A stretch of 64,000 nucleotides of DNA, from positions 3,077,280-3,141,279 of the forward strand of contig OZ244839.1 in the NCBI GenBank assembly GCA_965220825.1, given 5' to 3'. This stretch comes from Alphaproteobacteria bacterium (lineage in GTDB: Bacteria; Pseudomonadota; Alphaproteobacteria; UBA828). Every line of letters begins with the position of its first letter. Position 1 is the stretch's first letter. The translations under genes and the position numbers were made by a program. The notes under the pieces were generated by a model. The model saw only the letters and a program-made list of their open reading frames with translations, did no database searches and was not told where the DNA came from. This document shows positions 14,192 to 63,469 of the stretch, one piece after another.

Positions 14192-14555
14192 CGGAAACCG
14201 TCGGCCAAACCGGCCGATTCCGGCATTTTGCGCCTTTTCCGGCACCGCTCAATCGATTGCGTGCCGTCCTTCACAGAAGCCGCCAGCGGTGCGGCCCGCG
14301 AATCTTTTTTGTGTTCCGCTTTCGAACCCGTTGTCAGCCCTTTCGCCGCTCATTAATCTGATCGTCATGAGGACGCCGGGGCGTTTCGCACCGGCGAAAT
14401 CAAAAGGCGGTAGTTTCGAGGCGGTACTTTCGAGGATGTGGGCGTCGCGGCGCGGCTCCGCCGGACCGTGACGAGCGAGACCAATCGCGCCGCTTCCGGG
14501 AGGCCGCCGCGGCAGGCGCGAAGGTGTCGGAGGAGGGGCCTCACGTGGAGCACTC

Positions 14556-16049
14556 GTGCGACGGTGCCCCGATGCGGATTGCGGCATCCCCCAGATTGCG
14601 CGGCCTCGTGACCGCGCGCTTTGCTACCGAAGCCTGACCTTGCCCGCCGCCCGACCCTCGCAGAATGCCAACCCCGCATGGGAGCGGATCCGCACACGCC
14701 TGCGCGCCGAGCTCGGAGACAACATCTTTTCGAGCTGGCTTGCACCGCTGACCTTCGATCGCATTGAAAACGGAAGGGTGGAGCTCTCCGCCCCGACACC
14801 TTTCGTGCGTGACTGGGTGGCGTCGCACTATGCGCATCGCATCCGCGAACTTTGGGCGCTCGAGCAGGAGGGCGTCACGACTGTCGACATCGCCGTGGGA
14901 ACGAATGCCCCCGCCGCTCGCCGTTCCGGTTCCGCACCCGCGAGGGCCCGCGGTGGAAGAGGATTGGCCGTCGGCCCATCCTCGGACGCGGAGCGGTCCG
15001 GCGAAGTGGCGAACGCGGGTTCGCCGCTCAACGGGCGCCTCACCTTTCGCGAGTTCGTGGTCGGCAAGCCAAACGAGTTCGCTTACGCCGCGGCCTTGCG
15101 GGTGGCGGAGGCCGATCGTCCTCCGTTCAACCCGCTCTACATCTACAGCGGAGTCGGCCTCGGCAAGACCCACCTCATCCATGCCATCGCCTGGCGGGTG
15201 CAGGAGAGCAACCCCAACCGGCACGTCCTCTATTTGTCCGCCGAGAAGTTCATGTACCACTTCGTGCGGGCGGTCCGGTACAAGGACACGATGGCCTTTA
15301 AGAACTATTTCCGCTCTGTCGACGTGCTGATGATCGACGATGTCCAGTTCATCTGCGGCAAGGACAGTACCCAGGAAGAGTTTTTCCACACCTTCAACGC
15401 ATTGGTGGATCACAACCGCCAGGTGGTAATCGCGGGCGACCGCCCGCCGTCCGATCTGGATGGAATGGAGGAGCGGCTGCGCTCGCGCCTCGGATGGGGG
15501 CTGGTCGCCGATATCCACCCCACCACCTATGAGCTCCGGCTCGGCATCCTTCAGTCGAAGGCGGAGGCCCTGGGCCTCGCCGGCGCTCCGAGGAGCGTGT
15601 TCGAATATCTCGCGCGCCGCATCACCTCCAATGTGCGCGAACTGGAGATGGCGCTGCTGCGCGTCGCTCACCACGCGACATATTTGAATGCGCCGGTGAC
15701 ACTGGAGATGACCCAGGAGGTCATGCGCGATGTGCTGCGAAGCTCCACCCGGCGCGTTACCATAGAGGAAATACAGCGGCGGGTGGCCGAGCATCACAAC
15801 ATCAAATATTCGGAAATGATGTCCAACCGGCGCGCCCGTGCCGTCGCGCGCCCGCGTCAGATGGCGATGTATCTTGCCAAGCAGCTAACGGGGCGCTCGC
15901 TGCCGGAGATCGGCCGCAAGTTCGGCGGGCGCGACCACACCACGGTGATGCACGCCGTGCGCCGGATCGAAGACCTGATGGCGAAGGACGTCGCTATCGA
16001 GGAAGACGTCAAGCTGCTGCGCCGCAGGATCGAAGAGGGAGACGGCTAG
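14556..16049 (+). CDS. dnaA: chromosomal replication initiator protein DnaA (start uncertain; alternative TTG at 14640)
   Basis: W..I..RLRAELGDNIFSSWLAPL N-terminal motif, AAA+ Walker A GVGLGKTHL, Walker B LMIDDVQF, C-terminal DNA-binding helix (RDHTTVMHAVRRIE). Confidence 0.9.
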   Translation: MRRCPDADCGIPQIARPRDRALCYRSLTLPAARPSQNANPAWERIRTRLRAELGDNIFSSWLAPLTFDRIENGRVELSAPTPFVRDWVASHYAHRIRELWALEQEGVTTVDIAVGTNAPAARRSGSAPARARGGRGLAVGPSSDAERSGEVANAGSPLNGRLTFREFVVGKPNEFAYAAALRVAEADRPPFNPLYIYSGVGLGKTHLIHAIAWRVQESNPNRHVLYLSAEKFMYHFVRAVRYKDTMAFKNYFRSVDVLMIDDVQFICGKDSTQEEFFHTFNALVDHNRQVVIAGDRPPSDLDGMEERLRSRLGWGLVADIHPTTYELRLGILQSKAEALGLAGAPRSVFEYLARRITSNVRELEMALLRVAHHATYLNAPVTLEMTQEVMRDVLRSSTRRVTIEEIQRRVAEHHNIKYSEMMSNRRARAVARPRQMAMYLAKQLTGRSLPEIGRKFGGRDHTTVMHAVRRIEDLMAKDVAIEEDVKLLRRRIEEGDG

Positions 16050-16324
16050 CCCCCCACCCGGTACGCGGCCCGCATCACGCATGAGTCCCGCCTCGGTGCA
16101 TGCCGGGCGTCGCAGCGGCGGGTGGGAGGTGGCTTTCACGTCGGCGCCGCGCTGCAACCCGGCGCGGACCGGGCCCACGGGGCGGGCGGAAAAGTCTGCG
16201 GCGGTGGCCCGTTGTTGGCTATAATCTATATTGTCGATTCATTCGCGCGAGAGCGTCGAGCCTTGCGCGAAGAACGAAGGGCTGGCCACGCCGGCCGCCG
16301 GCACTGAACGGGTGGCGATCGGGT

Positions 16325-17452
16325 ATGAAACTGACCATGGAACGTTCCGCGCTTCTGGGCTCGCTGGCGCATGTCCAGAGCGTTGTGGAGCGCCGCAACA
16401 CCATTCCCATCCTCAACAATGTCCGCATGGATGCGGATGGGAACGACCGCATCCGCCTGACGGCGACGGATCTCGACCTCGCCATGGTCGAGGGCGCACT
16501 GGCAGGCGTCGAGCAGGGCGGCGGTGCGACGGCGCCCGCACACACCCTCTACGATATCGTGCGGAAGCTCCCGGCAGGCGCGCAGGTCTCCCTCTCGCTC
16601 GATGCGGAGGCGGGACGCCTCGAACTCCGCTCGGGCCGCTCGACCTTCACGCTGTCCTGCCTGCCGCTCGAGGATTTTCCGGCCGTTGCGGATGGGGAGT
16701 TTCCCCACGCCTTTTCCATCCCCGCTAACGACCTCAAGCGGCTCATCGACAAAGCCCGCTTTGCCATGTCGACCGAGGAAACGCGCTATTACCTGAACGG
16801 AATTTACCTCCATCCGGCGGTCTCCGAGGGCAGCGGCGAGAGCAAGCTCCGGGCGGTCGCGACCGACGGGCATCGCTTGGCGCTTGTCGATGTCCCGCTG
16901 CCCGAGGAGGCGGCGGGCTTGCCGGGTCTCATCATCCCCCGCAAGACCGTGACGGAGGTGTACAAGCTGATCGAGGAAGACGAGTCGTCCGTCGCCGTCG
17001 CGGCGTCGGAGACCCAGATCCGCTTCACCGTCGGCGAGGTGGTCTTCACCTCGAAGCTGATCGACGGCACGTTTCCCGATTACGAGCGCGTAATACCGCG
17101 CGGCAACGACAATCTGCTGGCTCTCGGGAAGGAAGAGTTTTCGGACGCGATCGACCGGGTTTCCACGATCAACGCGGATCGCAGCGGCGGGGTGAAGCTC
17201 GCCGTCGCGCAGAACGGCGTGACTCTCACGGCCGGTAGCGCCGATACGGGCAAGGCGAGCGAGGAGTTGGAAGCGCGCTACGATGCCGCGCCGTTCGAGG
17301 TGGGCTTCAACGCCCGCTACATTCTCGACGTGGCCGGGACGATCGAAGGCGACCAGATCCAGCTCTTCTTCGCGGACGCCGGCTCGCCGGCTCTGGTGAA
17401 GGACCCGGAGGATCCCGGCGTGCTTCATGTCGTCATGCCGATGCGCGTCTAG
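16325..17452 (+). CDS. dnaN: DNA polymerase III beta sliding clamp
   Basis: MKLTMERSALLGSLAHVQSVVERRNTIPILNNVRMDADG..., 375 aa, three-domain beta-clamp. Follows dnaA as usual. Confidence 0.9.
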   Translation: MKLTMERSALLGSLAHVQSVVERRNTIPILNNVRMDADGNDRIRLTATDLDLAMVEGALAGVEQGGGATAPAHTLYDIVRKLPAGAQVSLSLDAEAGRLELRSGRSTFTLSCLPLEDFPAVADGEFPHAFSIPANDLKRLIDKARFAMSTEETRYYLNGIYLHPAVSEGSGESKLRAVATDGHRLALVDVPLPEEAAGLPGLIIPRKTVTEVYKLIEEDESSVAVAASETQIRFTVGEVVFTSKLIDGTFPDYERVIPRGNDNLLALGKEEFSDAIDRVSTINADRSGGVKLAVAQNGVTLTAGSADTGKASEELEARYDAAPFEVGFNARYILDVAGTIEGDQIQLFFADAGSPALVKDPEDPGVLHVVMPMRV

Positions 17453-17483: not shown

Positions 17484-21099
<3,616 letters not shown>

Positions 21100-51923: not shown

Positions 51924-52835
51924 ATGTGTGGAATTGCGGGCGTCATGTTCAAGCATGGCGGCACCGGCCTGGAGGCCGGCCGCGCGCTGATCGATATGCT
52001 CGACGGCTGCCAGCACCGCGGACCGGATTCAACGGGCTTCGCGCTCTATGAGGAAGCGCGCGAGGGCGAGCTCAGATTCCGTTTCCTCGTGGGTGAGGGC
52101 GCCGGCAGGGACGATTCGATCGCGCGCATCCGCGGCCTCCTCGAGGAGAAGGGCGCGGAAATCGTGGACGACGAGCAGGTCGGCAACAGCTACCGCGCCG
52201 TCGTGCGCTTCTCCGGCGACGTTCAGAAGCTCGCCTACGAGATGGAGAACGCGGCGACACTCGTTTCCATCGGTGAGAGCCTCGACATCCGCAAGGATGT
52301 GGGCGGTGCGCACGATGTGGACGAACGCTTCCAGGTGAGCGCCGTAAGGGGTACGCACGGGCTCGGCCATGTCCGGCTCGCCACCGAATCGGACGTGAAG
52401 CCCGAGGCGGCCCATCCGTTCTGGGCCACGGGTTTCACCGACATCGCCATCGTGCATAACGGTCAGATCACCAATTATTGGAAGATGCGCAGGCGGTTGG
52501 AGCGGCGGGGCTTCGAGTTCCATACCGACAATGACAGCGAGCTGATCGCCGTCTATCTCGCGGACAAGCTCGCGAACGAGGCGACGCTCGAGGACGCGCT
52601 GAAGACCTCCATCGAGGACCTGGACGGCACGTTCTCCTTCCTGGTCTCCACCAAGGACGAAATCGGTTACGCCAAGGACCATCTCGCCGCCAAACCCATG
52701 ATCATGTACGAGAACGACGACATGATCGCCATCGCGTCCGAAGAGGTCTCGCTCAACCGCCTCTTCCCGGGCCGTGCGCTCGACACCCGGGAACCGCCGC
52801 CAGGGAGCTACGGTACATGGTCCAGGTCGATCTAG
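51924..52835 (+). CDS. class-II (Ntn) glutamine amidotransferase domain protein (GlxB / N-methylglutamate synthase subunit A-like)
   Basis: N-terminal MCGIAG nucleophile Cys2, about 303 aa stand-alone GATase-2 domain. Confidence 0.75.
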   Translation: MCGIAGVMFKHGGTGLEAGRALIDMLDGCQHRGPDSTGFALYEEAREGELRFRFLVGEGAGRDDSIARIRGLLEEKGAEIVDDEQVGNSYRAVVRFSGDVQKLAYEMENAATLVSIGESLDIRKDVGGAHDVDERFQVSAVRGTHGLGHVRLATESDVKPEAAHPFWATGFTDIAIVHNGQITNYWKMRRRLERRGFEFHTDNDSELIAVYLADKLANEATLEDALKTSIEDLDGTFSFLVSTKDEIGYAKDHLAAKPMIMYENDDMIAIASEEVSLNRLFPGRALDTREPPPGSYGTWSRSI

Positions 52836-54802
52836 GCGAAATCGCCGTACGCGAAGCCAACGAGGCGATCCGCGAATATGGCGCCCGTGGCGAGGATGTG
52901 GAGGTTCTCAACCCGGACGCACGGCACCATATCGGGGTCGGCCTGATCCATCCCGTCACGGTGCGGGTGCGCGGCTCGGCGGGCTATTTCTGCGCGGGCC
53001 TCGCCGACCGGGCGCGCTTCGAAATCGATAACAATGTGGGCTGGGGCCTGGGCGACAACATGTATTCCGGCACCGTGATCGTCCGCGGCAATGCGGGCGC
53101 GATCGCGGGTGTCGCCATCCGGGGTGCCGAGATCGTGATCCACGGCAATATGGGCTCCCGCGCCGGCCAGGTGATGAAGGCCGGCACGCTGTGCTGCGTC
53201 GGCAACGCCAACTTCATGGCGGGCTACATGATGTATGGCGGGCGCATCATCATCCTCGGGGAATCCGGCGAGCGCGTGGGCGAGGACATGTCCGCCGGCG
53301 AAATCTATATCGGCTCCCGCATCCATAGCCTGGGCTCGGACGCGGAACTCGCCGACATCGAGGCGTCGGAACTCGACGGCGTGCGGGAGTTCCTGGACCG
53401 TCACGAGATCCCGTTCAAGGGGGGCTTCCAGAAGGTGGTGAATGCGGGCAAGCGGCTGCGCTACGCCACCTCGGAGCGGCAAGTGCGCAGCATTCCGTTC
53501 TTCACCTTCTCCGGCAAGTCGGACTACTGGAACGACAAGGTCCAGGAGGACATCTACATCAAGTCCCAGATCGGGCGTTACCGGGTGCGGGGGTATGGCG
53601 GTGCGCGGGAGCTCCCGCACCTCTCCGACATCGCCTTCCGCAAGGATCTCTCGTCGGCGGGCACCCGGGGCGACCCGGTGGCGGCGGTCGAGATGCGGAC
53701 GGAGATCGGCGGGTTGAACGGTGCGCGCCCGCTCTCGCTCTCCATGCCGGTGATGATCGCGCCCATGAGCTACGGCGCGCTCTCACGTTCCACCAAGCAG
53801 GCGGTGGGCATGGCGTCCAGCATGGCGGGAATCGCCGAGAATACGGGCGAAGGTGGCATGAGCGACGCCCAGCGGGGTGCGGCGGAACAGCTCGTCTTCC
53901 AGTGCCTGGGCGGGCGGCTCGGCTGGAACATCCACGACATGAACCGTGCCGACGGGCTCGAAATCTATATCAGCCAGGGCGCGAAGCCCGGTTTCGGCGG
54001 CCAGCTCATGGCGAAGAAGGTCACGAAGGAGCTTGCCACCATCCGCGGCATCCCCGAGGGGATCGATCTGCGCTCGCCCTCGCGCCACCCCGATATCCTC
54101 GGTGCCGACGATCTGGTCATCAAGGTGGAGGAGTTCCGGGAGGCGACGGGCTACCGCATCCCGGTGAGCGTGAAGCTCGGCGCGGGCCGCGTCCGCGATG
54201 ACATCAAGATTGCCTACAAGGACGGCTTCGACTTCGTGGAGCTCGATGGCATGCAGGGCTCCACAGGTGCCGGCGGCGCGGAGGTGATGGAGCATGTGGG
54301 GGTGCCCACCATCGCCGCCATCGTCCAGGCCATGCGCGCGCTGGAGGAAGTGGACGGCCTCGGCAAGATGCAGATCGTCCTCATGGGCGGCATCCGCGAC
54401 GGGGTGGACGCGGTGAAGGGCCTCTGCCTCGGCGCGGACGCCGTCGCCATGGGCACCGCGGTAATCATTGCCGGCGGTTGCATCGCCTGCATGCAGTGCC
54501 ATGTGGGCCAGTGCGTGACCGGAATCGCGACCCAGGACCCGGAGCATGAGCGCCGCTACAACCCGGTGGCGGAGGCACGCAACATCCACCGCTATCTGGA
54601 GGGGGTGCGCTGGCAGATCGCGGCGCTGACCCAGGCGCTCGGCTATTCCAGCACGGTTGATCTGAATCGCGGCGATCTGGTGGCGCTTACGCGCGATGCG
54701 GCCGAGATGACGGGCCTTCCCTACGAACCGCAATACCGGGAGCGGGAACGCGAAACCGCCCTTGCACAGCGCTTCCGCGCGGTTCGCGACGGCGTGAGCT
54801 GA
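52817..54802 (+). CDS. fused GXGXG-domain + FMN-binding glutamate-synthase-central-domain protein (GlxC-GlxD / MgsB-MgsC-like fusion)
   Basis: N-terminal repeated GxGxG beta-helix region (VRGSAGYF..VIVRGNAGAIAG..IVIHGNMGSRAG..). C-terminal PF01645-like blocks (MIAPMSYGALS, ENTGEGG, SQGAKPGFGGQL, GMQGSTGAGG, MGGIRDGVDAVKGLCLGADAV, 3Fe-4S-type CxxCxxxxC GGCIACMQCHVGQC). Confidence 0.75.
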   Translation: MVQVDLGEIAVREANEAIREYGARGEDVEVLNPDARHHIGVGLIHPVTVRVRGSAGYFCAGLADRARFEIDNNVGWGLGDNMYSGTVIVRGNAGAIAGVAIRGAEIVIHGNMGSRAGQVMKAGTLCCVGNANFMAGYMMYGGRIIILGESGERVGEDMSAGEIYIGSRIHSLGSDAELADIEASELDGVREFLDRHEIPFKGGFQKVVNAGKRLRYATSERQVRSIPFFTFSGKSDYWNDKVQEDIYIKSQIGRYRVRGYGGARELPHLSDIAFRKDLSSAGTRGDPVAAVEMRTEIGGLNGARPLSLSMPVMIAPMSYGALSRSTKQAVGMASSMAGIAENTGEGGMSDAQRGAAEQLVFQCLGGRLGWNIHDMNRADGLEIYISQGAKPGFGGQLMAKKVTKELATIRGIPEGIDLRSPSRHPDILGADDLVIKVEEFREATGYRIPVSVKLGAGRVRDDIKIAYKDGFDFVELDGMQGSTGAGGAEVMEHVGVPTIAAIVQAMRALEEVDGLGKMQIVLMGGIRDGVDAVKGLCLGADAVAMGTAVIIAGGCIACMQCHVGQCVTGIATQDPEHERRYNPVAEARNIHRYLEGVRWQIAALTQALGYSSTVDLNRGDLVALTRDAAEMTGLPYEPQYRERERETALAQRFRAVRDGVS

Positions 54803-54805
54803 GCC

Positions 54806-57322
54806 ATGACGATCTCCGAGATGGACAGTGGCGGGCAGCTTCTCGCCGAACTTCCCGACGATACCGGCGACATCCACTTCGTCCCGGCGCCTTGCCAGGT
54901 TGCCTGCCCGGTGGGCACGGACGCGCCCTCCTACATCGCCTATATCTGGGAGCGGAAGTTCGAGGAGGCATTCGAGGCCATCACGGCCACCAACCCGTTC
55001 AGCTCCATCTGCGGGCGGGTGTGCGACGCGCCCTGCGAACCGGCCTGCCGGCGCACCGATTCCGACGGGCCGGTGCAGATCCGCAACCTCAAGCGCTTTG
55101 TCATGGACGCGGTCGGCCCCGATCACGCGCTGCCGCCGGTGCCGGTGACGAAGCAGCAAACCGTCGCCGTGGTGGGTTCGGGTCCCGCCGGGATGACGGC
55201 CGCGCACGATCTTTGCGTCGCGGGTTACGAGACGCATGTCTATGAAATGACGGACCGTCTCGGCGGCATGATGGTCTGGGGAATCCCCGCCTTCCGGCTC
55301 CCGACGGGCATCATCGGGGAGGATATCGATCGCATCGCCAAGCGCTGCCCCGGAATGAAGATCCATCTCGATACCGCCCTCGGGCGGGACGTGACGCTCG
55401 ATGAGTTGAAGGAGCGCCACGACGCGGTGATCCTCGCCATCGGCGCCTGGTGGGGCAAGAAGATGGGGATCCCGGGCGAGGACGATCCGAGGGTGATCGA
55501 CGGCGTGCAGTTCCTGAGGGACGTGAATGAAGGCGCCCGGCCCGAGATACCGGAGACCGTGGTGGTGGTGGGCGGCGGCGACGTGGCGATGGATGCCTGC
55601 CGGGTCGCCAAGCGCCTCCCCGGCTGCAAGCATGTCAAGGTGATCTACCGCCGGGGTCCGGCGGAGATTCCGGCGCGCAAGATCGAACTCGAGGGTGCCG
55701 TCGCCGAAGGAATCGAGTTCGTCTACCACACGCAGCAGACGGAAATCGTGAAGGACGGCAACGGGCTCGCGGTCCGCTGCCTCCGGACGACCCTTGGCGA
55801 TCCGGACGAATCGGGCCGCCGCAGCCCCGTCAACATGCCGGGGACGGAGCATGATATCTCGTGCGGCATGGTGATAGCCTCGGTGGGCCAGGAGGGGCTC
55901 TGCGACGATCTGGACGGCCGCGGCATGATGGGGACCGACCGGGTGCGGACGGACTGGGAGACCATGCGCACGAGCGATCCCAAGGTCTTTGCGGCCGGCG
56001 ACGGCGCCTTCGGCGGCTCCACCATCGTCATGGCCATGAACCACGGCCAGCGGGTCGCCTATTATGTGAAGGCTTTCCTCGAGGGGCGGGACGATCCGCT
56101 TCCCTATCGCACGCCCTTCCGTACGCGCCGCGTACCCGTGGCGCAGGATCTGAAGTGGGAGCTGCTGCCGGTGCAGCACCCCGATTTCCTCGGTCTCGGC
56201 GAGAAGCCCGTGGAGTTCCCCGAGATCGAGACCACCTACGACTGGAATGCGGCGCGGGACGAGGCGGCGCGCTGCTTCCGCTGCGATGCGGAGACGGGCT
56301 CGGCCGACTATTCGGTCGACCACCGGGAGGATATTTTCGCCATGGCGCGCACCAACCCGGTGGATGCGGCCCGTCAGACGACGACGCTGCGCAAGCGCAT
56401 GGAAGGCCGCGACGACCCCTTCCCGCCGGAGCGCCTCGGGGTGCTCGACGACCTCGCTTTCCTTCCGGCCAACCTCTCCCGCCTCGTGATCGACCCCTAT
56501 CGGGAGGCCTGCCGGATCGACACCCGGGTGGGCGAGCTTCGCCTCGACCTTCCCTTCCTCGTCGCCGGCTTCGACACCGCGCCCGCGGATGTGCGCCGCG
56601 CGGTCGGGCAGGGCCTCGCGGAGGCCGGCGCCGCCTATCTCGGGCTCGAGCCTCTGGGCGGAGAGGCCGCTTGGTTCCAGCTCGTGATGCCGGATCAGAT
56701 TCCGCCGTCGCCCGAGGCGGCGGGTATCGTCCACGCGCTGGGCCACAGCTTCCGCCCCGTGGAGCCCAATCGCCTGCGCGAGGGCCAGGTGGCGGGTCTT
56801 GCCGTCTCCTCGCCCGCCGTTCTGGAGGAGGCGATCCCCCATGCCCTCGAAGCCGGCTTCGACATGCTGCTGCTGGACGGCAGTGCCGGTCTCGGAACCT
56901 CCTGGGCGGAACTCCAGGGCCCGCCTGACCTCACGATCCTGCGGGATGCCGTTTCCATCCTGCGCCGCCTCGGGCGCGAGGAGGAGATCGACCTGGTCTA
57001 TTTCGGCGGCGTGCGCTCCGGCACCGATGCGGCGAAGGTGATCGCCATGGGCGCGGTGGCGGTGGTACTGGGAGTCGTGGTAGGGCTCGCCGCGGGCGGT
57101 GCCGTCGACCAGACCCACGCGATGCGCTTCTCCGCCGACCGCACGGACGAGGACCGCGCGCGGGGCGCCACCAACATCGTGAAGGCGTCCGCCTCGGAAG
57201 CCTCCATGATGGCCCGCTGTACGGGCAAGACGAACCTCCAGAATGTGGAGCCCGAGGACCTGCGCGCACTGACCGCCGCCACCGCCGAAGCGACCGGCAT
57301 CCCACTCGCGGGGACGCAGTAG
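54806..57322 (+). CDS. GltD-like NAD(P)H flavin oxidoreductase fused to a second, degenerate glutamate-synthase FMN-type TIM-barrel domain
   Basis: N-terminal Fe-S Cys clusters (CQVACPVG, CGRVCDAPCEPAC), two dinucleotide-binding motifs (VAVVGSGPAGMTAA, VVVVGGGDVAMD). C-terminal about 370 aa with PF01645-like blocks (LLLDGSAGLGTS, IDLVYFGGVRSGTDAAKVIAMGA). Confidence 0.65.
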   Translation: MTISEMDSGGQLLAELPDDTGDIHFVPAPCQVACPVGTDAPSYIAYIWERKFEEAFEAITATNPFSSICGRVCDAPCEPACRRTDSDGPVQIRNLKRFVMDAVGPDHALPPVPVTKQQTVAVVGSGPAGMTAAHDLCVAGYETHVYEMTDRLGGMMVWGIPAFRLPTGIIGEDIDRIAKRCPGMKIHLDTALGRDVTLDELKERHDAVILAIGAWWGKKMGIPGEDDPRVIDGVQFLRDVNEGARPEIPETVVVVGGGDVAMDACRVAKRLPGCKHVKVIYRRGPAEIPARKIELEGAVAEGIEFVYHTQQTEIVKDGNGLAVRCLRTTLGDPDESGRRSPVNMPGTEHDISCGMVIASVGQEGLCDDLDGRGMMGTDRVRTDWETMRTSDPKVFAAGDGAFGGSTIVMAMNHGQRVAYYVKAFLEGRDDPLPYRTPFRTRRVPVAQDLKWELLPVQHPDFLGLGEKPVEFPEIETTYDWNAARDEAARCFRCDAETGSADYSVDHREDIFAMARTNPVDAARQTTTLRKRMEGRDDPFPPERLGVLDDLAFLPANLSRLVIDPYREACRIDTRVGELRLDLPFLVAGFDTAPADVRRAVGQGLAEAGAAYLGLEPLGGEAAWFQLVMPDQIPPSPEAAGIVHALGHSFRPVEPNRLREGQVAGLAVSSPAVLEEAIPHALEAGFDMLLLDGSAGLGTSWAELQGPPDLTILRDAVSILRRLGREEEIDLVYFGGVRSGTDAAKVIAMGAVAVVLGVVVGLAAGGAVDQTHAMRFSADRTDEDRARGATNIVKASASEASMMARCTGKTNLQNVEPEDLRALTAATAEATGIPLAGTQ

Positions 57323-57377
57323 CCCCAGTTTGCTCCGTGGTGCCTGGGGACCGGCCGCCGTGCCTACACAGCAATTG

Positions 57378-57557
57378 ATGCTCCGATGTGGATCATGTGA
57401 GAAAATGACGCTTCATGTGCGTCAAAGAATAAACCATCTTCTGCATTTTGTTATATCGGCATCAACCATTATATGGGCGATTGTTTGGCTTATTCTTATA
57501 TTTAGTGACAGACGTATGGCGCAATGTACGCAGTGTGGTGGATCGAACAAGGTTTAG
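57378..57557 (+). CDS. tiny zinc-ribbon membrane protein (CxxC - TM helix - CxxC), hypothetical
   Basis: MLRCGSCEKMTLHVRQRINHLLHFVISASTIIWAIVWLILIFSDRRMAQCTQCGGSNKV. Located in a 250-bp segment of about 42% GC. Start uncertain (ATGs at 57330, 57378, 57405). Confidence 0.35.
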   Translation: MLRCGSCEKMTLHVRQRINHLLHFVISASTIIWAIVWLILIFSDRRMAQCTQCGGSNKV

Positions 57558-57650
57558 TCGAAATATGCGCGTTAGTACGGGCGGTCGCATTGACGCCGGC
57601 AGCAGCGTGAACCTGAACGGGGAGCGATCTCTCGCATAGGATGGCAGCCC

Positions 57651-58946
57651 ATGCGCGTTCACCTGAATTACGGCCGCGGCAAGCGTGCGGTAGAGCTTCC
57701 GGAGGGGTGTGACGTCACCGTCATTGCCAAGCAGGCGATGCCGGTGCTGGCGGCGCCTTCCGCCGCCATGGCGCGGGCGCTCGCCGAGCCCGTGGGCTGT
57801 GCGCCGCTCGCCAAGGAGGCCGCGGGCGCGGCGAGCGCCTGCATCCTGATCTGCGACGTCACCCGCCCGGTACCCAACGGGGTCATTCTTCCGGTTCTCG
57901 TCCGCGCCCTGCTGGGTGCCGGCCTTGCGCCCGATTCCATCACGGTGCTGGTGGCGACCGGCCTGCACCGGCCCAATGAAGGGGCGGAACTCGCGGAGCT
58001 GGTCGGCGACCCCTGGGTGCTCGAGACGGTCCGGGTCGAGAACCACTTCGCCCGCAGCGACGCCGACCACCGCTTCGTGGGCCGCACCCGGAGCGGCACG
58101 GTCGTCCGGCTGGACCGGCGCTTTCTGGAAGCGGACCTCAAGATCGCGACGGGGCTGGTGGAGCCCCACTTCATGGCGGGCTGGTCCGGCGGGCGCAAGG
58201 TGGTGGCGCCCGGCATTGCCCACGCGGAGACGGTGACGACGTTTCACAGCGCGCGCTTCATGGAGCACCCCGACTGCGCGAACTGCGTGCTGGAGGGCAA
58301 TCCGCTGCACGCGGAGCAGCTTGAAATCGTGGGCATGCTGGGGCCCTTGCGGGCGGTCAATGCCGTCATCGACGACGAGCGGCGCGTCTCCTTCCTCAAC
58401 TATGGCGAGATCGTCGCGAGCCATGCGGCGGCGGTCGGTTTCGCCGCGCCCTTCGCCACCGTGTCCGTGAGCGAGCGCTTCGCCACCGTGCTCACCTCCG
58501 CCGCCGGCCACCCCCTCGACCAGACCTACTATCAGACGGTCAAGGGCATGGTGGGACCCATGCAGATTCTGGCGCCCGGCGGGGACCTGATCGTGGCCTC
58601 CGCCTGCTCCGGCGGTTTGGGGTCGGCGGACTATGCCGAGGCCCAGCGCCGCCTGGTGGCGCTCGGCCCCGAGCGCTTCCTCGCCGGCATCGAGGGAAAG
58701 ACTCACGCCGCCATCGACGAGTGGCAGACCGAGATGCAGCTCAAACCCATGCGCGTGGGCACGATCCATCTCTTCACCGAGGGGCTCTCGGAAGAGGAGC
58801 GTGCGCTCACCGGCGTCCGCACCGTGGACTCCCTCGAGGGCGCCGTCGCCGAGGCCGCCGCGCGCCACGCCCGCAACGGCGACCGCCGCATCGCGGTTAT
58901 CCCCGAAGGCCCCTACGTCGTGCCGCTTCACCGGCACGCGGCGTAG
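57651..58946 (+). CDS. LarA-family protein (nickel-pincer-nucleotide-dependent 2-hydroxyacid racemase/epimerase-like, DUF2088)
   Basis: 431 aa. LVATGLHRP and HFMAGWSGGRK blocks characteristic of LarA N-terminal domain (Lys for NPN tethering), second catalytic His region. Confidence 0.7.
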   Translation: MRVHLNYGRGKRAVELPEGCDVTVIAKQAMPVLAAPSAAMARALAEPVGCAPLAKEAAGAASACILICDVTRPVPNGVILPVLVRALLGAGLAPDSITVLVATGLHRPNEGAELAELVGDPWVLETVRVENHFARSDADHRFVGRTRSGTVVRLDRRFLEADLKIATGLVEPHFMAGWSGGRKVVAPGIAHAETVTTFHSARFMEHPDCANCVLEGNPLHAEQLEIVGMLGPLRAVNAVIDDERRVSFLNYGEIVASHAAAVGFAAPFATVSVSERFATVLTSAAGHPLDQTYYQTVKGMVGPMQILAPGGDLIVASACSGGLGSADYAEAQRRLVALGPERFLAGIEGKTHAAIDEWQTEMQLKPMRVGTIHLFTEGLSEEERALTGVRTVDSLEGAVAEAAARHARNGDRRIAVIPEGPYVVPLHRHAA

Positions 58947-58959
58947 AGCGGTTCCATCG

Positions 58960-60507
58960 ATGGCTGAACCTGCGCGCCGGCGCGGGGCGAACCCCGTCTG
59001 CCTGTTGGCGGCGACGGTCATCGGCTCCGCTCTCGTCTATATCGACGGCACCGCGGTCAATGTCGCGCTTCCCGTGGCGCAGCGGGATCTGGGCGCGGAC
59101 CTGGTGGACCTGCAGTGGGTGATCGAGTCCTACGCGATCATGCTGGCGGCGCTCCTCCTTCTCGGTGGCGCACTGGGGGACCGCTACGGACGCAAGCGGT
59201 TGTTCGCGCTGGGCCTCTCCCTGTTCGCCGTCGCCTCCGTCTGGTGCGGGATGGCGCCGGATGTGGGCCAGCTCATCGGTGCCCGGGCGCTCCAGGGAGC
59301 GGGCGGTGCCCTGCTGATTCCGGGGAGCCTCGCACTGATTACCGCCCATGTGCCGCCGGAGCGCCGAGGCCGCGCCATCGGCACCTGGGCTGCGTTCTCT
59401 TCCGTTTCGGTGGCGATCGGGCCGGTGCTCGGCGGCTGGCTGATCGATCATGCGTCCTGGCGCTGGGTCTTCTACATCAACCCGCCGCTTGCGCTCGTCG
59501 TCCTGGCACTGCTTGCGGCCGGTGTGCCCGAGAGCCGGGACGAAAGCCGTAGTGGACGCTTCGACTATGTCGGTGCGGCGCTCGTGGCGCTCGGCCTCGG
59601 CGTGCTTGTCTACGGGCTGCTGGAGGCCGCACGCCACGGCTTCGACGACCCTGCGGCAGCGGTTTCGGTTGCGGCCGGCGTGGTGCTGCTCGCGGCTTTC
59701 ATCAGGGTGGAAGCACGGGCCGAGGTACCGATGATGCCGCTTGGTCTCTTCCGTTCCAGGGTCTTCAGCGGCGCGAACGCCGCCACCTTTTTTCTCTATG
59801 CGGCGCTCGGCGGCGGGTTCTTCTTCCTCTCCTTCAACATGGTGCAGGTGCAGGGCTGGAGCGCGACGGAGGCGGGCCTCGCCTTCCTGCCCCTGATCCT
59901 CTCGATCTCCGTCCTCTCCCAGGCGGTGGGCCGGACGGTGGATCGCGTTGGCGCCCGCTGGCTGCTGATCGCGGGGCCCGCGCTTTCGGCGGTGGGCTAC
60001 GGGCTCTTCATTCTGCCGGGTCCGGACGCGGACTACTGGCAGACATTCTTTCCCGCCATGGCGGCGCTCGGCGTCGGGACCGGCATCGCGGTGGCGCCGC
60101 TCACATCCGTGGCCATGGGCGCCGCGCCCGTCGCCCAGTCGGGCGTCGCGGCCGGTGTCAACAACACGGCGTCCCGCTTCGGCACCGTGCTCATGCTCGC
60201 GGTCTTCGGCCTGATCGTGGTCGCGGCCTTCAACGCCCGCCTGGATGTGGAGCCCGTGCTCGAAAGCCTCTCGCCCGCGGCCCGTGCCGCGTTCGATGCG
60301 GAGCGGCTCAACCTCGCGGCCGCGGCACTCCCCGAGGGGCTTCCGGCCGACGCGGCCGCCGCCCTTCGCGCCGCGGTGGAAGAGGGCTTCGTCGGGGGTT
60401 TCCGCATCGTGATGGCGGTCTGCGCCGGCCTGGCGTTGCTTGCGAGCCTGGCCGCCGCCCTCACCGTCCCGTCCGGCGGCGCCCGCGCGCCGGTGGACGG
60501 CCGCTGA
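58960..60507 (+). CDS. MFS transporter, DHA2 (14-TMS EmrB/QacA) family
   Basis: 515 aa. LGGALGDRYGRKRLF motif A region, 14 hydrophobic segments. 13 nt downstream of the LarA-like gene. Confidence 0.8.
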   Translation: MAEPARRRGANPVCLLAATVIGSALVYIDGTAVNVALPVAQRDLGADLVDLQWVIESYAIMLAALLLLGGALGDRYGRKRLFALGLSLFAVASVWCGMAPDVGQLIGARALQGAGGALLIPGSLALITAHVPPERRGRAIGTWAAFSSVSVAIGPVLGGWLIDHASWRWVFYINPPLALVVLALLAAGVPESRDESRSGRFDYVGAALVALGLGVLVYGLLEAARHGFDDPAAAVSVAAGVVLLAAFIRVEARAEVPMMPLGLFRSRVFSGANAATFFLYAALGGGFFFLSFNMVQVQGWSATEAGLAFLPLILSISVLSQAVGRTVDRVGARWLLIAGPALSAVGYGLFILPGPDADYWQTFFPAMAALGVGTGIAVAPLTSVAMGAAPVAQSGVAAGVNNTASRFGTVLMLAVFGLIVVAAFNARLDVEPVLESLSPAARAAFDAERLNLAAAALPEGLPADAAAALRAAVEEGFVGGFRIVMAVCAGLALLASLAAALTVPSGGARAPVDGR

Positions 60508-60512
60508 GCGGG

Positions 60513-61331
60513 CTATTGGGGTGCGAAGAAGGCGAGGGTCCGCGCTTCGATGCTTTGGCGCGGCGGTGCGTCCGGCGGCGTTTCCGGGTCCGCGAACGCC
60601 GTGTGGGCGGTGAATCGCGACCGTCCGTCCCGTAGCGAATCGTAACATTTGAAGACCAGGGCTTCCTCGCGCTCCATCGCCGGGAAGTAGTACCAGCGGT
60701 GGCCCGGATTGTGGCTCATCTGCAGAACCTCGCCGACGCGGTCCTCGTAGATCAGGTCGGTCTCCACCAGGTCTTCGGGCTGGATGCTGCGGGCGTCGCA
60801 GATGGCAAGCGGCATGTCGTGCACCGGCCCTGTGATGGGCCGCCAGACCTGGATGACGGCGAAGCGGTGCTCGAGCAGCGCGTCCGCGCGGTCCGCCGGC
60901 AGGAGGTCGCGGACCCTCTGGGGGGCGGACCTCTCCGTATAGTCGTTGTGGGCGATAAGCACGGGCTCGCGCGCACGGCGCTCGGCCCGGATTGCCGACT
61001 CGTTGACGCGGATGGTGTGGTCGAACACCAGGACCTCCGAGGCCCCGCTGTGGTCCTTCACCAGCCGTTCGACCTCGGGGTAGTAGACGGCCTCGACCTC
61101 CGCGTCGTCGAAGAAGTCGGCGACACGCGTCTCGTGCCGGGCAAGCGCGAAGCCTTCCCGGTCCAGCGCGAAGCGGTCGGCCTCCGCCCGCCCGTCCCGG
61201 ATGACCACGGAGACCTCGCGGAACGCCGCGTCCCGGAGCGCGGTGCGCTCGCCCGGCCGTGCGATATGCGTGGCGGGCTTCTCTCCGGACGGCACCAGAT
61301 AGTTGACATGCGCTCGGATGGAATCCTGCAT
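60513..61331 (-). CDS. hypothetical protein, possible CmcJ/NvfI-family hydroxylase-like
   Basis: 272 aa, MQDSIRAHVNYLVP... No cofactor motif recognised with certainty. Family call is from overall resemblance only. Confidence 0.4.
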   Translation of the reverse strand: MQDSIRAHVNYLVPSGEKPATHIARPGERTALRDAAFREVSVVIRDGRAEADRFALDREGFALARHETRVADFFDDAEVEAVYYPEVERLVKDHSGASEVLVFDHTIRVNESAIRAERRAREPVLIAHNDYTERSAPQRVRDLLPADRADALLEHRFAVIQVWRPITGPVHDMPLAICDARSIQPEDLVETDLIYEDRVGEVLQMSHNPGHRWYYFPAMEREEALVFKCYDSLRDGRSRFTAHTAFADPETPPDAPPRQSIEARTLAFFAPQ

Positions 61332-61444
61332 GGCTTGCGCTTCGTTGCCGCTGTGAACGGATCCGCAGAGTAGACCGAAACCGGTCGAAAACCCATCTTG
61401 TCGGCATACCCGTCGGGCGCGCAGCCCGGGCGCTCGGGGCGCGG

Positions 61445-63469
61445 CTACGCGGCGGCGATCTCCACCTCCACGCCGTGGACGCAGGTGCTTTCGCCCATGT
61501 CGGACTTGATGCCCGGGTTCAGCACGTTCACGTTGGCGCGCGCGGCACCCTCCTGGCGCGGCCAGCGCCCCTTCGGACTTAGGGCGACGCCGGGGGGAAC
61601 GATCTCGGCGGTCTCGAGGGTGAGCGTGAGGCTTCCGGTGGCGTTGGAAAGCCGCACCCTTTGCCCCGCCGCAAGCCCCCGCGCCGCCGCATCCGCCGGG
61701 TGGAGCGTGACGGTCGCCTTGCCGAGCTGCTTCGCGATCCGCGCGTCGTTCGCGTAGGAATCGTTCATCAGCCAGGGCGAGGCCGGCGAGAGAAGCCGAA
61801 GCCCGCCATTTGTGGGGCGCGCATCCGAATCCGGTGAGGGCACGCGGGGATGGCCGTCGGCCTCGGCGCGGGACGACGCAATCTCGAACTTGCCGCTTTC
61901 CGTCGGGAAGACGAGATCGGGAAACTGGATCTCGGGCTCGGCCGAGGGGAAGACCGTGCCCTTGGCCTTGAAATCCTCGAACGTGCCGGCGATTCCCACC
62001 TGGCCCATCACGGCCGCGATGATCTCCTCGTCGCTCTCGAAGAGGGCGGGCTCGCTGAAACCCATGGCACGGGCCAGGCGGCGGAAGATCTCCTGGTTGG
62101 GGAGCGATTCACCCAGGGGCTCCTGGAGTTTGGCCTGCGTCGAGAAGGAGAGGTTGAAGTAGCCGGAGACCAGATCGTCGAACTCGAGGAAGGAAGCCGC
62201 CGGCAGGACGTAATCGGCGTAGTCCGCCGTGTCGGTCTGGAAGATGTCCACCACCACGGTAAAGAGGTCGTCCCGCGCGAGCGCCCGCTGCAGGCGCGCC
62301 TGCTCCGGGCTGGAGGCTGCCGGGTTGATGTTCCAGCAGAGGAAGGCCTGGATGTCCGCCGGATCCTCGAGACGGGCGGCGAGTTCCATCTGGCTGAAGC
62401 TCGCCGGGCTCCGGCTGAGTGCGGCGCCGCTCAGATAGTCGCCGTCCACACCTTTCCGACCGCCGCCATTGAGATAGAGCATGCCGGCGCCGGGCTTGCC
62501 GAAATTGCCCGTCGCCGCAGCCAGCAGCGCGCAGGCGCGTATCACATTGCCGCCGCGCGCCTGGCGCTGCAGCCCCTGGCCCAGCCAGAGCAGCGCCGGC
62601 CCTGCGCCATAGGCCCGCGCCGCCTCCTCGATCAACGCGGAAGCGACGCCGGTCTCCCCTTCGGCCCATTCCGGCGTCGCGGCTTGCACGGAGGGCTCGA
62701 CCTCCTCCCAGCCCACGGTGTGGGCGGCGAGGAACGCGCGGTCGATCAATCCGTCCCGCACGAGGACATGCACCATGGCGAAGGCGAGCGCCGCGTCGGT
62801 GCCGGGAAAGGGCTGGAGATGGAGATCCGCCTCGGCCGCCGTCGGATGGCGCACCGGATCCACCACGATCACCGTGCCCGGAGCCTCCTTGAGCCAGTGC
62901 TTGTGCTGATGCGGCGCGGAGGCGGAGGGGTTTGCACCCCACACCAGGATGCAGGCGGAATCTTTTGCGGTGCGCGGATCGAACCCCACTGTGGACGTGC
63001 CGATGACGTAATCGAGCGCGACATGGCCCGCCATGTTGCAGACGGTGTCGGGCTCCACTTCCCGAGCGCCGAGCCGGCCGAGAAAACGCATCGGGAAGTT
63101 GTTGGCGATCAGGGAGCAGGTGCCGGTGTAGTGGGCATGGACGATCCGGTCCGCGCCGGGGCCTTCGGCGATGGCGGCGAAGCGCGCGGCGATGTCGGAG
63201 ATGGCCTCGTCCCAGCTCACGGGCGTGAAGCGGCCTTCGCCCTTGGCGCCTTGGCGCTTGAGCGGCGTGAGCAGCCGGGCTTCGCGGTCGCGGAAGACGC
63301 CATTGTAGGCGAGCGCGCATTTGCCGCAGAGCGCACCGCGGCTCACCGGATGGTCCGGATCGCCGAGAACGCGGGTGATGGCGCCGTTCCGTCTTATGGC
63401 GACGATCCCGCAGGCGTCATAGCAGTCCCTCGGGCAGGTGGTCTTGAGAACTTCCTTCTCGCTCGGCAT
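61445..63469 (-). CDS. molybdopterin (MGD) oxidoreductase, cytoplasmic, with N-terminal 4Fe-4S cluster
   Basis: 674 aa from MPSEKEVLKTTCPRDCYDACG...CGKC (four-Cys Fe-S motif). MopB-superfamily length with C-terminal MGD-binding barrel. No Tat signal. AGGAAA RBS. Confidence 0.8.
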   Translation of the reverse strand: MPSEKEVLKTTCPRDCYDACGIVAIRRNGAITRVLGDPDHPVSRGALCGKCALAYNGVFRDREARLLTPLKRQGAKGEGRFTPVSWDEAISDIAARFAAIAEGPGADRIVHAHYTGTCSLIANNFPMRFLGRLGAREVEPDTVCNMAGHVALDYVIGTSTVGFDPRTAKDSACILVWGANPSASAPHQHKHWLKEAPGTVIVVDPVRHPTAAEADLHLQPFPGTDAALAFAMVHVLVRDGLIDRAFLAAHTVGWEEVEPSVQAATPEWAEGETGVASALIEEAARAYGAGPALLWLGQGLQRQARGGNVIRACALLAAATGNFGKPGAGMLYLNGGGRKGVDGDYLSGAALSRSPASFSQMELAARLEDPADIQAFLCWNINPAASSPEQARLQRALARDDLFTVVVDIFQTDTADYADYVLPAASFLEFDDLVSGYFNLSFSTQAKLQEPLGESLPNQEIFRRLARAMGFSEPALFESDEEIIAAVMGQVGIAGTFEDFKAKGTVFPSAEPEIQFPDLVFPTESGKFEIASSRAEADGHPRVPSPDSDARPTNGGLRLLSPASPWLMNDSYANDARIAKQLGKATVTLHPADAAARGLAAGQRVRLSNATGSLTLTLETAEIVPPGVALSPKGRWPRQEGAARANVNVLNPGIKSDMGESTCVHGVEVEIAAA

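Follow-up and report, generated by a model that had tools for sequence, protein, structure and literature searches.

LarAH, a LarA homologue of 431 amino acids, is encoded in a 64-kb stretch of contig OZ244839.1 from an uncultured alphaproteobacterium; that whole stretch is called the window here. LarAH is probably a working, nickel-pincer nucleotide (NPN)-dependent racemase of short-chain 2-hydroxy acids, co-transcribed with a DHA2-family major facilitator superfamily (MFS) transporter and supplied by cofactor-synthesis genes (larB, larC and larE, together larBCE) located elsewhere in the genome. The enzyme family is known and this member of it is new and uncharacterised; the conserved operon around the gene is of modest interest. 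What is new is the conserved position of its clade, which lies 3' of a split glutamate-synthase-like operon and is followed by either an MFS gene or an aldehyde oxidoreductase gene. The pair at the center of this analysis is laid out as follows.

57651..58946, forward strand: LarAH, 431 amino acids; Pfam Lar_N and LarA_C, match to PDB 9EID/9EIA
58947..58959, forward strand: LarAH-MFS spacer, 13 nt, AGCGGTTCCATCG, by direct reading
58960..60507, forward strand: DHA2-family MFS transporter, 515 amino acids, 14 predicted transmembrane helices; MFS_1, TIGR00711 and hydrophobicity

Family and active site of LarAH

LarAH carries both LarA-superfamily (DUF2088) domains in one polypeptide, and its length falls within the roughly 420-430 amino acids typical of the family. 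Lar_N (PF09861) spans residues 7-207 (E 4e-52; 176.8 bits against a gathering score of 23.3), and LarA_C (PF21113) spans residues 279-423 (E 7e-14; 52.5 bits against 25). The alignment with NPN-bound Isosphaera pallida LarA (PDB 9EID/9EIA; E 1.4e-95, 41% identity) spans the whole protein, and full-length alignments extend to five solved LarA-family structures. Weaker alignments are obtained with T. thermosaccharolyticum LarA (28%), Lactiplantibacillus plantarum LarA (E 4e-43) and the malate racemase Mar2. The domain pair and the full-length match to the I. pallida enzyme bear out the original prediction of a LarA-family gene.

The residues that define the chemistry of the family are conserved. 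In I. pallida LarA (LarA_Ip), Arg73, Gln295 and Lys298 bind the substrate carboxylate, His107 and His173 carry out catalysis, Tyr294 contacts the 2-hydroxyl group, Lys183 tethers the cofactor through its thioamide, and His199 is the fourth nickel ligand (PMC11851776). All eight are intact at the aligned positions of LarAH (R72, H106, H173, K183, H199, Y294, Q295 and K298), and all eight are invariant among 120 database homologues of 65-81% identity. K183 closes the motif W-S-G-G-R-K (residues 178-183) as the tethering lysine of SGGxK. The catalytic histidines lie in ATGLHRP (H106) and VEPHF (H173), with His108/His174 as their L. plantarum LarA counterparts, and the substrate-binding Y294, Q295 and K298 fall within LDQTYYQTVKG. 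K183, H199 and R72 also correspond to Lys184, His200 and Arg75 of the cofactor set described for the LarA family (PMC11770544, PMC11851776). The alignment thus confirms the retained SGGRK lysine noticed at the outset, together with the catalytic lysine and histidines, and no loss of these residues is seen.

The side-chain pocket of LarAH is formed by F174, M175, W358 and Q359, at the positions of F175, F176, W358 and T359 in L. plantarum LarA (LarA_Lp). The pocket consensus is F, F, W, E/Q in the LAR group and Y, F, H/Q, T in 2-hydroxyglutarate racemases (PMC11770544), and LarA_Ip has L, M, W, Q (PMC11851776). LarAH agrees at three of the four positions with either the LAR or the LarA_Ip pattern. 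From these residues, the predicted substrate has a small, mostly aliphatic or hydroxylated side chain of the lactate, 2-hydroxybutyrate or glycerate type.

If it works as its I. pallida and L. plantarum homologues do, LarAH would act as an NPN-using racemase or C2-epimerase of such small 2-hydroxy acids. The cofactor would be tethered to Lys183, with His199 completing the nickel coordination, and the substrate would be held through its carboxylate by Arg72, Gln295 and Lys298 and through its 2-hydroxyl by Tyr294. His106 and His173 would alternate as acid and base while hydride moves to the pyridinium C4 and back, inverting C2 via a bound 2-oxo-acid intermediate. The pocket of Phe174, Met175, Trp358 and Gln359 would be of the lactate or short-chain type.

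Among characterised enzymes, I. pallida LarA (LarAH2/Sar; 9EIA, 9EID, 9EIF), a racemase with a broad range of short-chain 2-hydroxy acids, is closest to LarAH, sharing its length, two-domain fold, all eight catalytic and binding residues and three of the four pocket residues (M175, W and Q). The published context table lists no lar genes alongside its LarAH2 group, and the source gene likewise stands without them. The two proteins differ at 59% of residues, and pocket position 174 is Phe in LarAH and Leu in LarA_Ip, the Phe being bulkier and closer to L. plantarum LarA. Host and genomic context differ as well: I. pallida belongs to the Planctomycetota, whereas LarAH, whose activity is a prediction, comes from an uncultured alphaproteobacterium. 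L. plantarum LarA shares the superfamily, the catalytic residues and the SGGxK tether lysine with LarAH, but it aligns more weakly, and its larB, larC and larE have no adjacent counterparts in the source.

LarAH is under purifying selection and is being maintained, with a ratio of non-synonymous to synonymous substitution (dN/dS) of 0.15-0.23 against its closest clade relatives, at dS near saturation. Identical proteins are encoded in a second public assembly (ENA contig_18, locus L001), and the proteins are singletons at 90% identity. The closest named relatives come from metagenome-assembled genomes labelled Rhodospirillaceae or Rhodospirillales.

Cofactor genes and the LarAH orthologue family

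No larB, larC or larE gene is found around LarAH. Searches of the 64-kb window by tblastn with 72 proteobacterial LarB, LarC and LarE proteins from related loci return noise only. Hidden Markov models built from the same 72 proteins give no match at E<=10 among six-frame open reading frames (ORFs) of the window and L001, and they recover the source loci of the proteins as a positive control. Pfam scans of the other large ORFs in the window likewise find no larB, larC or larE and return unrelated genes, including dnaA, dnaN and gyrB. The ENA contig L001, which runs about 5 kb past the window end, holds none of the three, and the local absence therefore covers about 69 kb of the 3.28-Mb contig. 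The earlier statement that the window lacks larBCE stands on all three kinds of search, and the standard lar system that it had envisaged immediately outside is not found in the roughly 5 kb beyond the end. The arrangement of a canonical lar operon, with larBCE beside the racemase gene, is not the one seen at this locus.

The family to which LarAH belongs is large (7,832 proteins at E<=1e-30 among 8,000 candidates scored). The immediate context was surveyed in 80 species-level loci with LarAH orthologues of 60-78% identity, in which neighbouring genes were clustered and named by Pfam and NCBIfam. Directly beside orthologues of 60-71% identity and on their strand, 26 loci have larC, 24 have larB and 22 have larE, usually in the order larC-larE-larB; these neighbours were verified with the NCBIfam equivalogs TIGR00299/NF052512 (LarC), NF033503 (LarB) and TIGR00268 (LarE). 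In 54 of the 80 loci, larC is absent within 10 kb of the orthologue. Because orthologues in other species adjoin larC, larB and larE, the family is tied to the NPN pathway, and the commonest state within it is to have no lar genes within 10 kb.

Published surveys agree with this picture. LarC adjoins genuine LarA (group 1) in 42% of cases and LarB in 33%, and the LarAH2 group of I. pallida has no associated gene at all in the same context table (PMC7583248 Table S1). LarA and NPN pathway homologues occur together in about 9% of more than 1,000 genomes surveyed, and the sole decoupling mentioned there is larBCE without larA, in about 15% (PMC11796402). The missing neighbours that the original prediction singled out are thus not remarkable, as flanking larC-larE-larB genes accompany the orthologues in about 30% of the 80 species. 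LarA homologues usually stand without cofactor genes beside them, and LarAH looks like a normal NPN-dependent racemase. Since LarAH is under purifying selection and local absence is usual, larB, larC and larE very probably lie elsewhere on the 3.28-Mb chromosome, as would be the case for most members of the family.

A second NPN enzyme, annotated as 'nickel pincer cofactor-dependent isomerase, group 22' (NF052515, 515 bits), adjoins the orthologue in 20 of the 80 species (L007, L013, L016, L019, L021, L023-L025, L027, L033, L035, L038, L043, L047, L052, L056, L059, L062, L068 and L077). This suggests that the isomerase and the LarAH orthologue form a two-enzyme NPN module in those lineages. 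Neither lar genes nor the group 22 isomerase are present in 42 of the 80 loci.

Genomic context and competing readings

The transporter gene begins at ATG 58960, and a longer ORF from 58633 is an upstream in-frame extension that overlaps LarAH. Its product matches MFS_1 (E 4.7e-58), passes the DHA2/EmrB subfamily model TIGR00711 (254.7 bits against a cut-off of 230.2) and contains 14 hydrophobic 19-residue segments in a Kyte-Doolittle scan. The 13-nt spacing to a 14-helix DHA2 transporter noted earlier is therefore exact. The top family matches are the drug-efflux pumps EmrB, LmrA, SmvA, LfrA and QepA, each far under the cut-off for the named pump. The protein shares the TIGR00711 pass, 14 helices and a length of about 500 amino acids with the DHA2 (EmrB/QacA) family, but it differs from the named efflux pumps in having no EmrA-type or outer-membrane gene beside it and a racemase as its conserved partner. 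We know of no characterised DHA2 transporter with a racemase partner. A membrane permeation gene also accompanies the racemase in the larA/larBCDE system of L. plantarum, where it is LarD; the source transporter is a 14-helix DHA2 protein rather than an aquaglyceroporin-type LarD or an LctP lactate permease.

LarAH ends at a TAG codon (58944-58946), and the 13-nt spacer that follows contains no GGAG-like or other clear Shine-Dalgarno motif; no terminator-like site lies between the two genes, the spacer being too short for one. Co-transcription of LarAH and the MFS gene is therefore very likely, and translational reinitiation at the MFS start appears plausible. The original description of the pair as translationally coupled goes beyond what the sequence shows: a short gap without a Shine-Dalgarno motif fits reinitiation, but the genes do not overlap, and the gap ranges from about 7 nt in L002 through 13 nt in the source to about 50 nt in L029. 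Spacing thus varies among orthologous pairs, and tight coupling is not conserved.

Upstream of LarAH lie three genes that together resemble a glutamate synthase (GOGAT). They comprise an N-terminal nucleophile (Ntn) amidotransferase, a synthase subunit binding flavin mononucleotide (FMN) and a subunit binding NAD(P)H, flavin adenine dinucleotide (FAD) and Fe-S.

51924..52835, forward strand: class-II (Ntn, Met-Cys start) glutamine amidotransferase, 303 amino acids, first of the trio; GATase_6 and GATase_7, starts MCGIAG
52817..54802, forward strand: GXGXG domain fused to a glutamate-synthase FMN domain, 661 amino acids; Glu_synthase E 9e-90, GXGXG E 8e-14
54806..57322, forward strand: GltD-like NAD(P)H/FAD/Fe-S subunit, 838 amino acids, to which a second, degenerate GltS-FMN-like domain is fused; Fer4_20 and Pyr_redox_2

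The amidotransferase is 74-88% identical in clade relatives. The GXGXG/FMN fusion resembles GltB FMN domains in the PDB and is 70-89% identical where it stands beside the GltD-like gene in relatives. The GltD-like protein matches GltD- and NfnB-type subunits in the PDB. No member of the trio reaches an NCBIfam equivalog cut-off. Compared with GltB/GltD and their split archaeal-like form, the trio supplies the four GOGAT modules (Ntn amidotransferase with Cys1, FMN synthase, GXGXG and GltD-type), but the modules are spread over three proteins, GXGXG precedes FMN, and the GltD-like protein carries an extra degenerate FMN copy. This extra copy gives weak Glu_synthase and FMN_dh matches at residues 680-775, and residues 677-833 are 28% identical to the FMN domain of the preceding gene. 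Its identification as an FMN 2-hydroxy-acid oxidase was rejected: a weak L-lactate-oxidase match covers the generic FMN-phosphate-binding strand-loop only, the oxidase His motif is not aligned, and the neighbouring GltS FMN domain is matched instead.

The link to the upstream cluster that had been suggested is real at the level of synteny, as the three glutamate-synthase-like genes are conserved beside the LarAH clade. In the closest relatives, the conserved block consists of a Liv-type ABC transporter, an M20 peptidase and an alpha/beta hydrolase on the minus strand, and the amidotransferase, the GXGXG/FMN fusion, the GltD-like gene and then LarAH on the plus strand. Wherever sequence is available, clade members have the trio directly 5' of LarAH and in the same orientation, with gaps of mostly 39-79 nt. 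In a neighbor-joining tree of 91 LarAH sequences, those beside glutamate-synthase-like genes form one clade, with the exception of L094/L095, which fall outside on a long branch. Among JGI metagenomes, 324 relatives of the GltD-like protein are found, many of them marine. LarAH directly follows the GltD-like gene in 7 of the 57 metagenomic loci that carry the GltB-like/GltD-like pair and enough downstream sequence; in three of these seven an MFS gene comes next, in one a gene of the aldehyde:ferredoxin-oxidoreductase family. The published LarAH context table, searched for glutamate-synthase COGs, lists no LarA homologue behind a glutamate synthase. For LarAH2/Sar, the nearest characterised group, the literature offers no genomic context that is informative; the placement behind this operon, of which the LarAH-MFS pair would form the distal end, with an MFS or an aldehyde oxidoreductase gene following, hints at substrate and role. 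This is a large clade (dozens of 90%-identity clusters, from ocean and soil) with many members auto-named 'lactate racemase', so one enzyme assay would annotate many genes.

MFS orthologues of 52-60% identity follow LarAH in L002, L029, L055, L086, L088 and L122, whose LarAH proteins are 63-77% identical to that of the source. Together with the source, these loci are basal within the clade, which would make the MFS the ancestral state downstream of LarAH. The pair thus arose once and has persisted as identity fell to 63% for LarAH and 52% for the MFS, which mildly favors a functional link between the two.

A different arrangement occurs in L003, L004, L005 and L082-L085, where a gene of the aldehyde:ferredoxin-oxidoreductase family (AFOR_N and AFOR_C) lies about 100-870 nt 3' of LarAH instead of the MFS. 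An 80-amino-acid ThiS/MoaD-like protein is encoded next, and farther on, the opposite strand carries an AhpC-type redoxin gene and glnE. In the LarAH tree, loci with the oxidoreductase and the ThiS-like gene form a single derived subclade.

Several points weigh against reading LarAH as an NPN-dependent racemase working with its neighbors. DHA2 transporters are typically drug/H+ antiporters and are not known as hydroxy-acid carriers. The MFS is arguably dispensable, as it is replaced by the aldehyde oxidoreductase in the sister subclade and its family matches are drug-pump-like, and in the source genome a 328-nt low-GC insert parts LarAH from the upstream operon. LarAH also scores under all NCBIfam equivalog cut-offs, with 314.3 bits against 460 for NF033504, 'nickel-dependent lactate racemase', and likewise below those of the LarAH5, LarAH6, LarAH10 and LarAH14/15/16 models; it is therefore placed as a LarA-superfamily member that appears to lie near the LAR/Sar groups and is not filed as 'lactate racemase'. 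These scores, and an identity of only 41% to the closest enzyme that has been characterised, make the substrate assignment tentative. On the cofactor side, larBCE are missing not only around LarAH but also within 6-10 kb in about 20 loci of the GltS-linked LarAH clade (more than 300 kb in total). A LarC search (query from L017) found no source or clade-relative contig among its best 120 matches, but that list is saturated and uninformative: all 120 are at least 57% identical to the query and the LarC of L006, at 60% on the aligned core, is missing, so the test is powerless.

These absences are what a true orphan would show, in which the genome, and perhaps the whole GltS-linked clade, lacks larBCE and the protein is inactive, scavenges NPN or uses another cofactor or none. 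We consider this very improbable. The residues for NPN tethering, nickel ligation and catalysis are invariant across the clade despite 60-80% identity, under the selection described above, a degree of conservation unexpected in a protein deprived of its cofactor. Sister clades of the orthologue group carry adjacent larBCE, the survey of more than 1,000 genomes mentions decoupling only as larBCE without larA (PMC11796402), and the saturated LarC search does not count as a negative. The earlier label of an 'orphan' gene is thus not supported: it applies to the 69 kb searched, where absence is usual for the family, and an orphan is unlikely because all cofactor-binding residues are under purifying selection. 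The label reflects the size of the window and is probably wrong.

The gene order also invites a reading in which the racemase serves the upstream glutamate-synthase-like enzyme by interconverting the enantiomers of the 2-hydroxy acid that is the reduced form of its 2-oxo-acid substrate (2-hydroxyglutarate/2-oxoglutarate or lactate/pyruvate, for example) for salvage, repair or feed-in, with the MFS, or the aldehyde oxidoreductase of sister genomes, handling the same carbon skeleton. The near-single clade of trio-linked LarAHs, from 81% to about 60% identity in marine and soil lineages, fits this idea, as do the short gaps on one strand throughout and the presence of the nitrogen-assimilation gene glnE nearby in several relatives. 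It is nevertheless unlikely: only 7 of the 57 metagenomic loci carry LarAH, the F, M, W, Q pocket is lactate-type rather than the Y, F, H/Q, T of 2-hydroxyglutarate racemases, a racemase releases no 2-oxo acid, the second FMN-like domain lacks the aligned catalytic His motif of 2-hydroxy-acid oxidases, and the 328-nt insert breaks the operon in the window. A broader form, in which a nearly monophyletic clade from uncultured marine and soil Alphaproteobacteria has long been wired into the 3' end of the operon, never near larBCE, and acts on a 2-hydroxy acid linked to the 2-oxo-acid chemistry of the glutamate-synthase-like enzyme, seems to us quite unlikely. If true, it would be the first physiological context for the poorly understood LarAH2-like group; a more radical version would have the LarAH clade without any larBCE. 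A more serious possibility, though still on the doubtful side, is that the transporter is a generic DHA2 efflux pump that shares the transcript through inherited gene order and is functionally unrelated. Its best family matches are drug-efflux pumps, an MFS gene adjoins LarAH in 4 of 81 loci (the source and 3 of the 80 species loci) with one origin in the tree, the sister subclade carries the aldehyde oxidoreductase and ThiS-like gene instead, and the gap to LarAH differs between loci. Set against this are the retention of the pair to 63% (LarAH) and 52% (MFS) identity in marine and soil lineages, the very short spacer without its own Shine-Dalgarno motif, and the precedents of the lactic-acid channel LarD in L. 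plantarum and of a lactate permease beside 25% of group 1 LarA genes (PMC7583248 Table S1). If LarAH is an NPN-dependent racemase paired with its transporter, as we prefer, the DHA2 MFS would most likely transport the acid, or a compound related to it, through the membrane.

The low-GC spacer and other neighboring features

The insert between the GltD-like gene and LarAH stands out in a window of 63-71% GC.

57323..57650, forward strand: low-GC spacer, 328 nt, 45-51% GC, one of only two stretches below 52% GC in the window
57378-57557, forward strand: ORF of 59 amino acids within the spacer, MLRCGSCEK...hydrophobic helix...CTQCGGSNKV, with two CxxC pairs around the helix

The same junction measures only 39-79 nt in most relatives. 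The 59-amino-acid ORF has no Pfam match, and the 328 nt have no Rfam match to a riboswitch or known RNA, even at E<=1. A repeat or mobile-element origin was rejected, with no second copy in the window or any locus. An AGGA motif lies 9-12 nt 5' of the LarAH ATG. A scan of 57250-60700 for sigma-70-type consensus promoters finds no site; the promoter of the LarAH-MFS pair in the source genome is probably within the low-GC spacer.

Other insertions occur at this junction, namely a different ORF of 66 amino acids in L083 and another of 129 amino acids, with a weak aspartyl-protease match, in L004/L082. The junction looks like a hot spot for small insertions. ENA contig_18 (L001) begins at 57181, inside the end of the GltD-like gene and 142 nt 5' of the low-GC spacer, a break that may reflect strain variation or assembly difficulty at the junction.

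The window also contains dnaA (14472-16049), dnaN (16085-17452) and gyrB (18451-21099), and it therefore spans the chromosomal replication-origin region, with LarAH about 42 kb from dnaA. On the other side of the pair, the MFS gene is convergent with a minus-strand gene for a CmcJ/NvfI-family oxidoreductase (NF041278, 338 bits), the two stop codons lying 5 nt apart (60505-60515). A molybdopterin oxidoreductase gene comes next on the minus strand (both minus-strand genes lie in the region 60513-63469), and neither gene is seen beside LarAH in relatives. In L029 (12831-14384) and L055 (3008-4567), the gene after the MFS encodes a glycerol-3-phosphate-oxidase-like FAD oxidoreductase (DAO and DAO_C), which might be a dehydrogenase for the product of the racemase.

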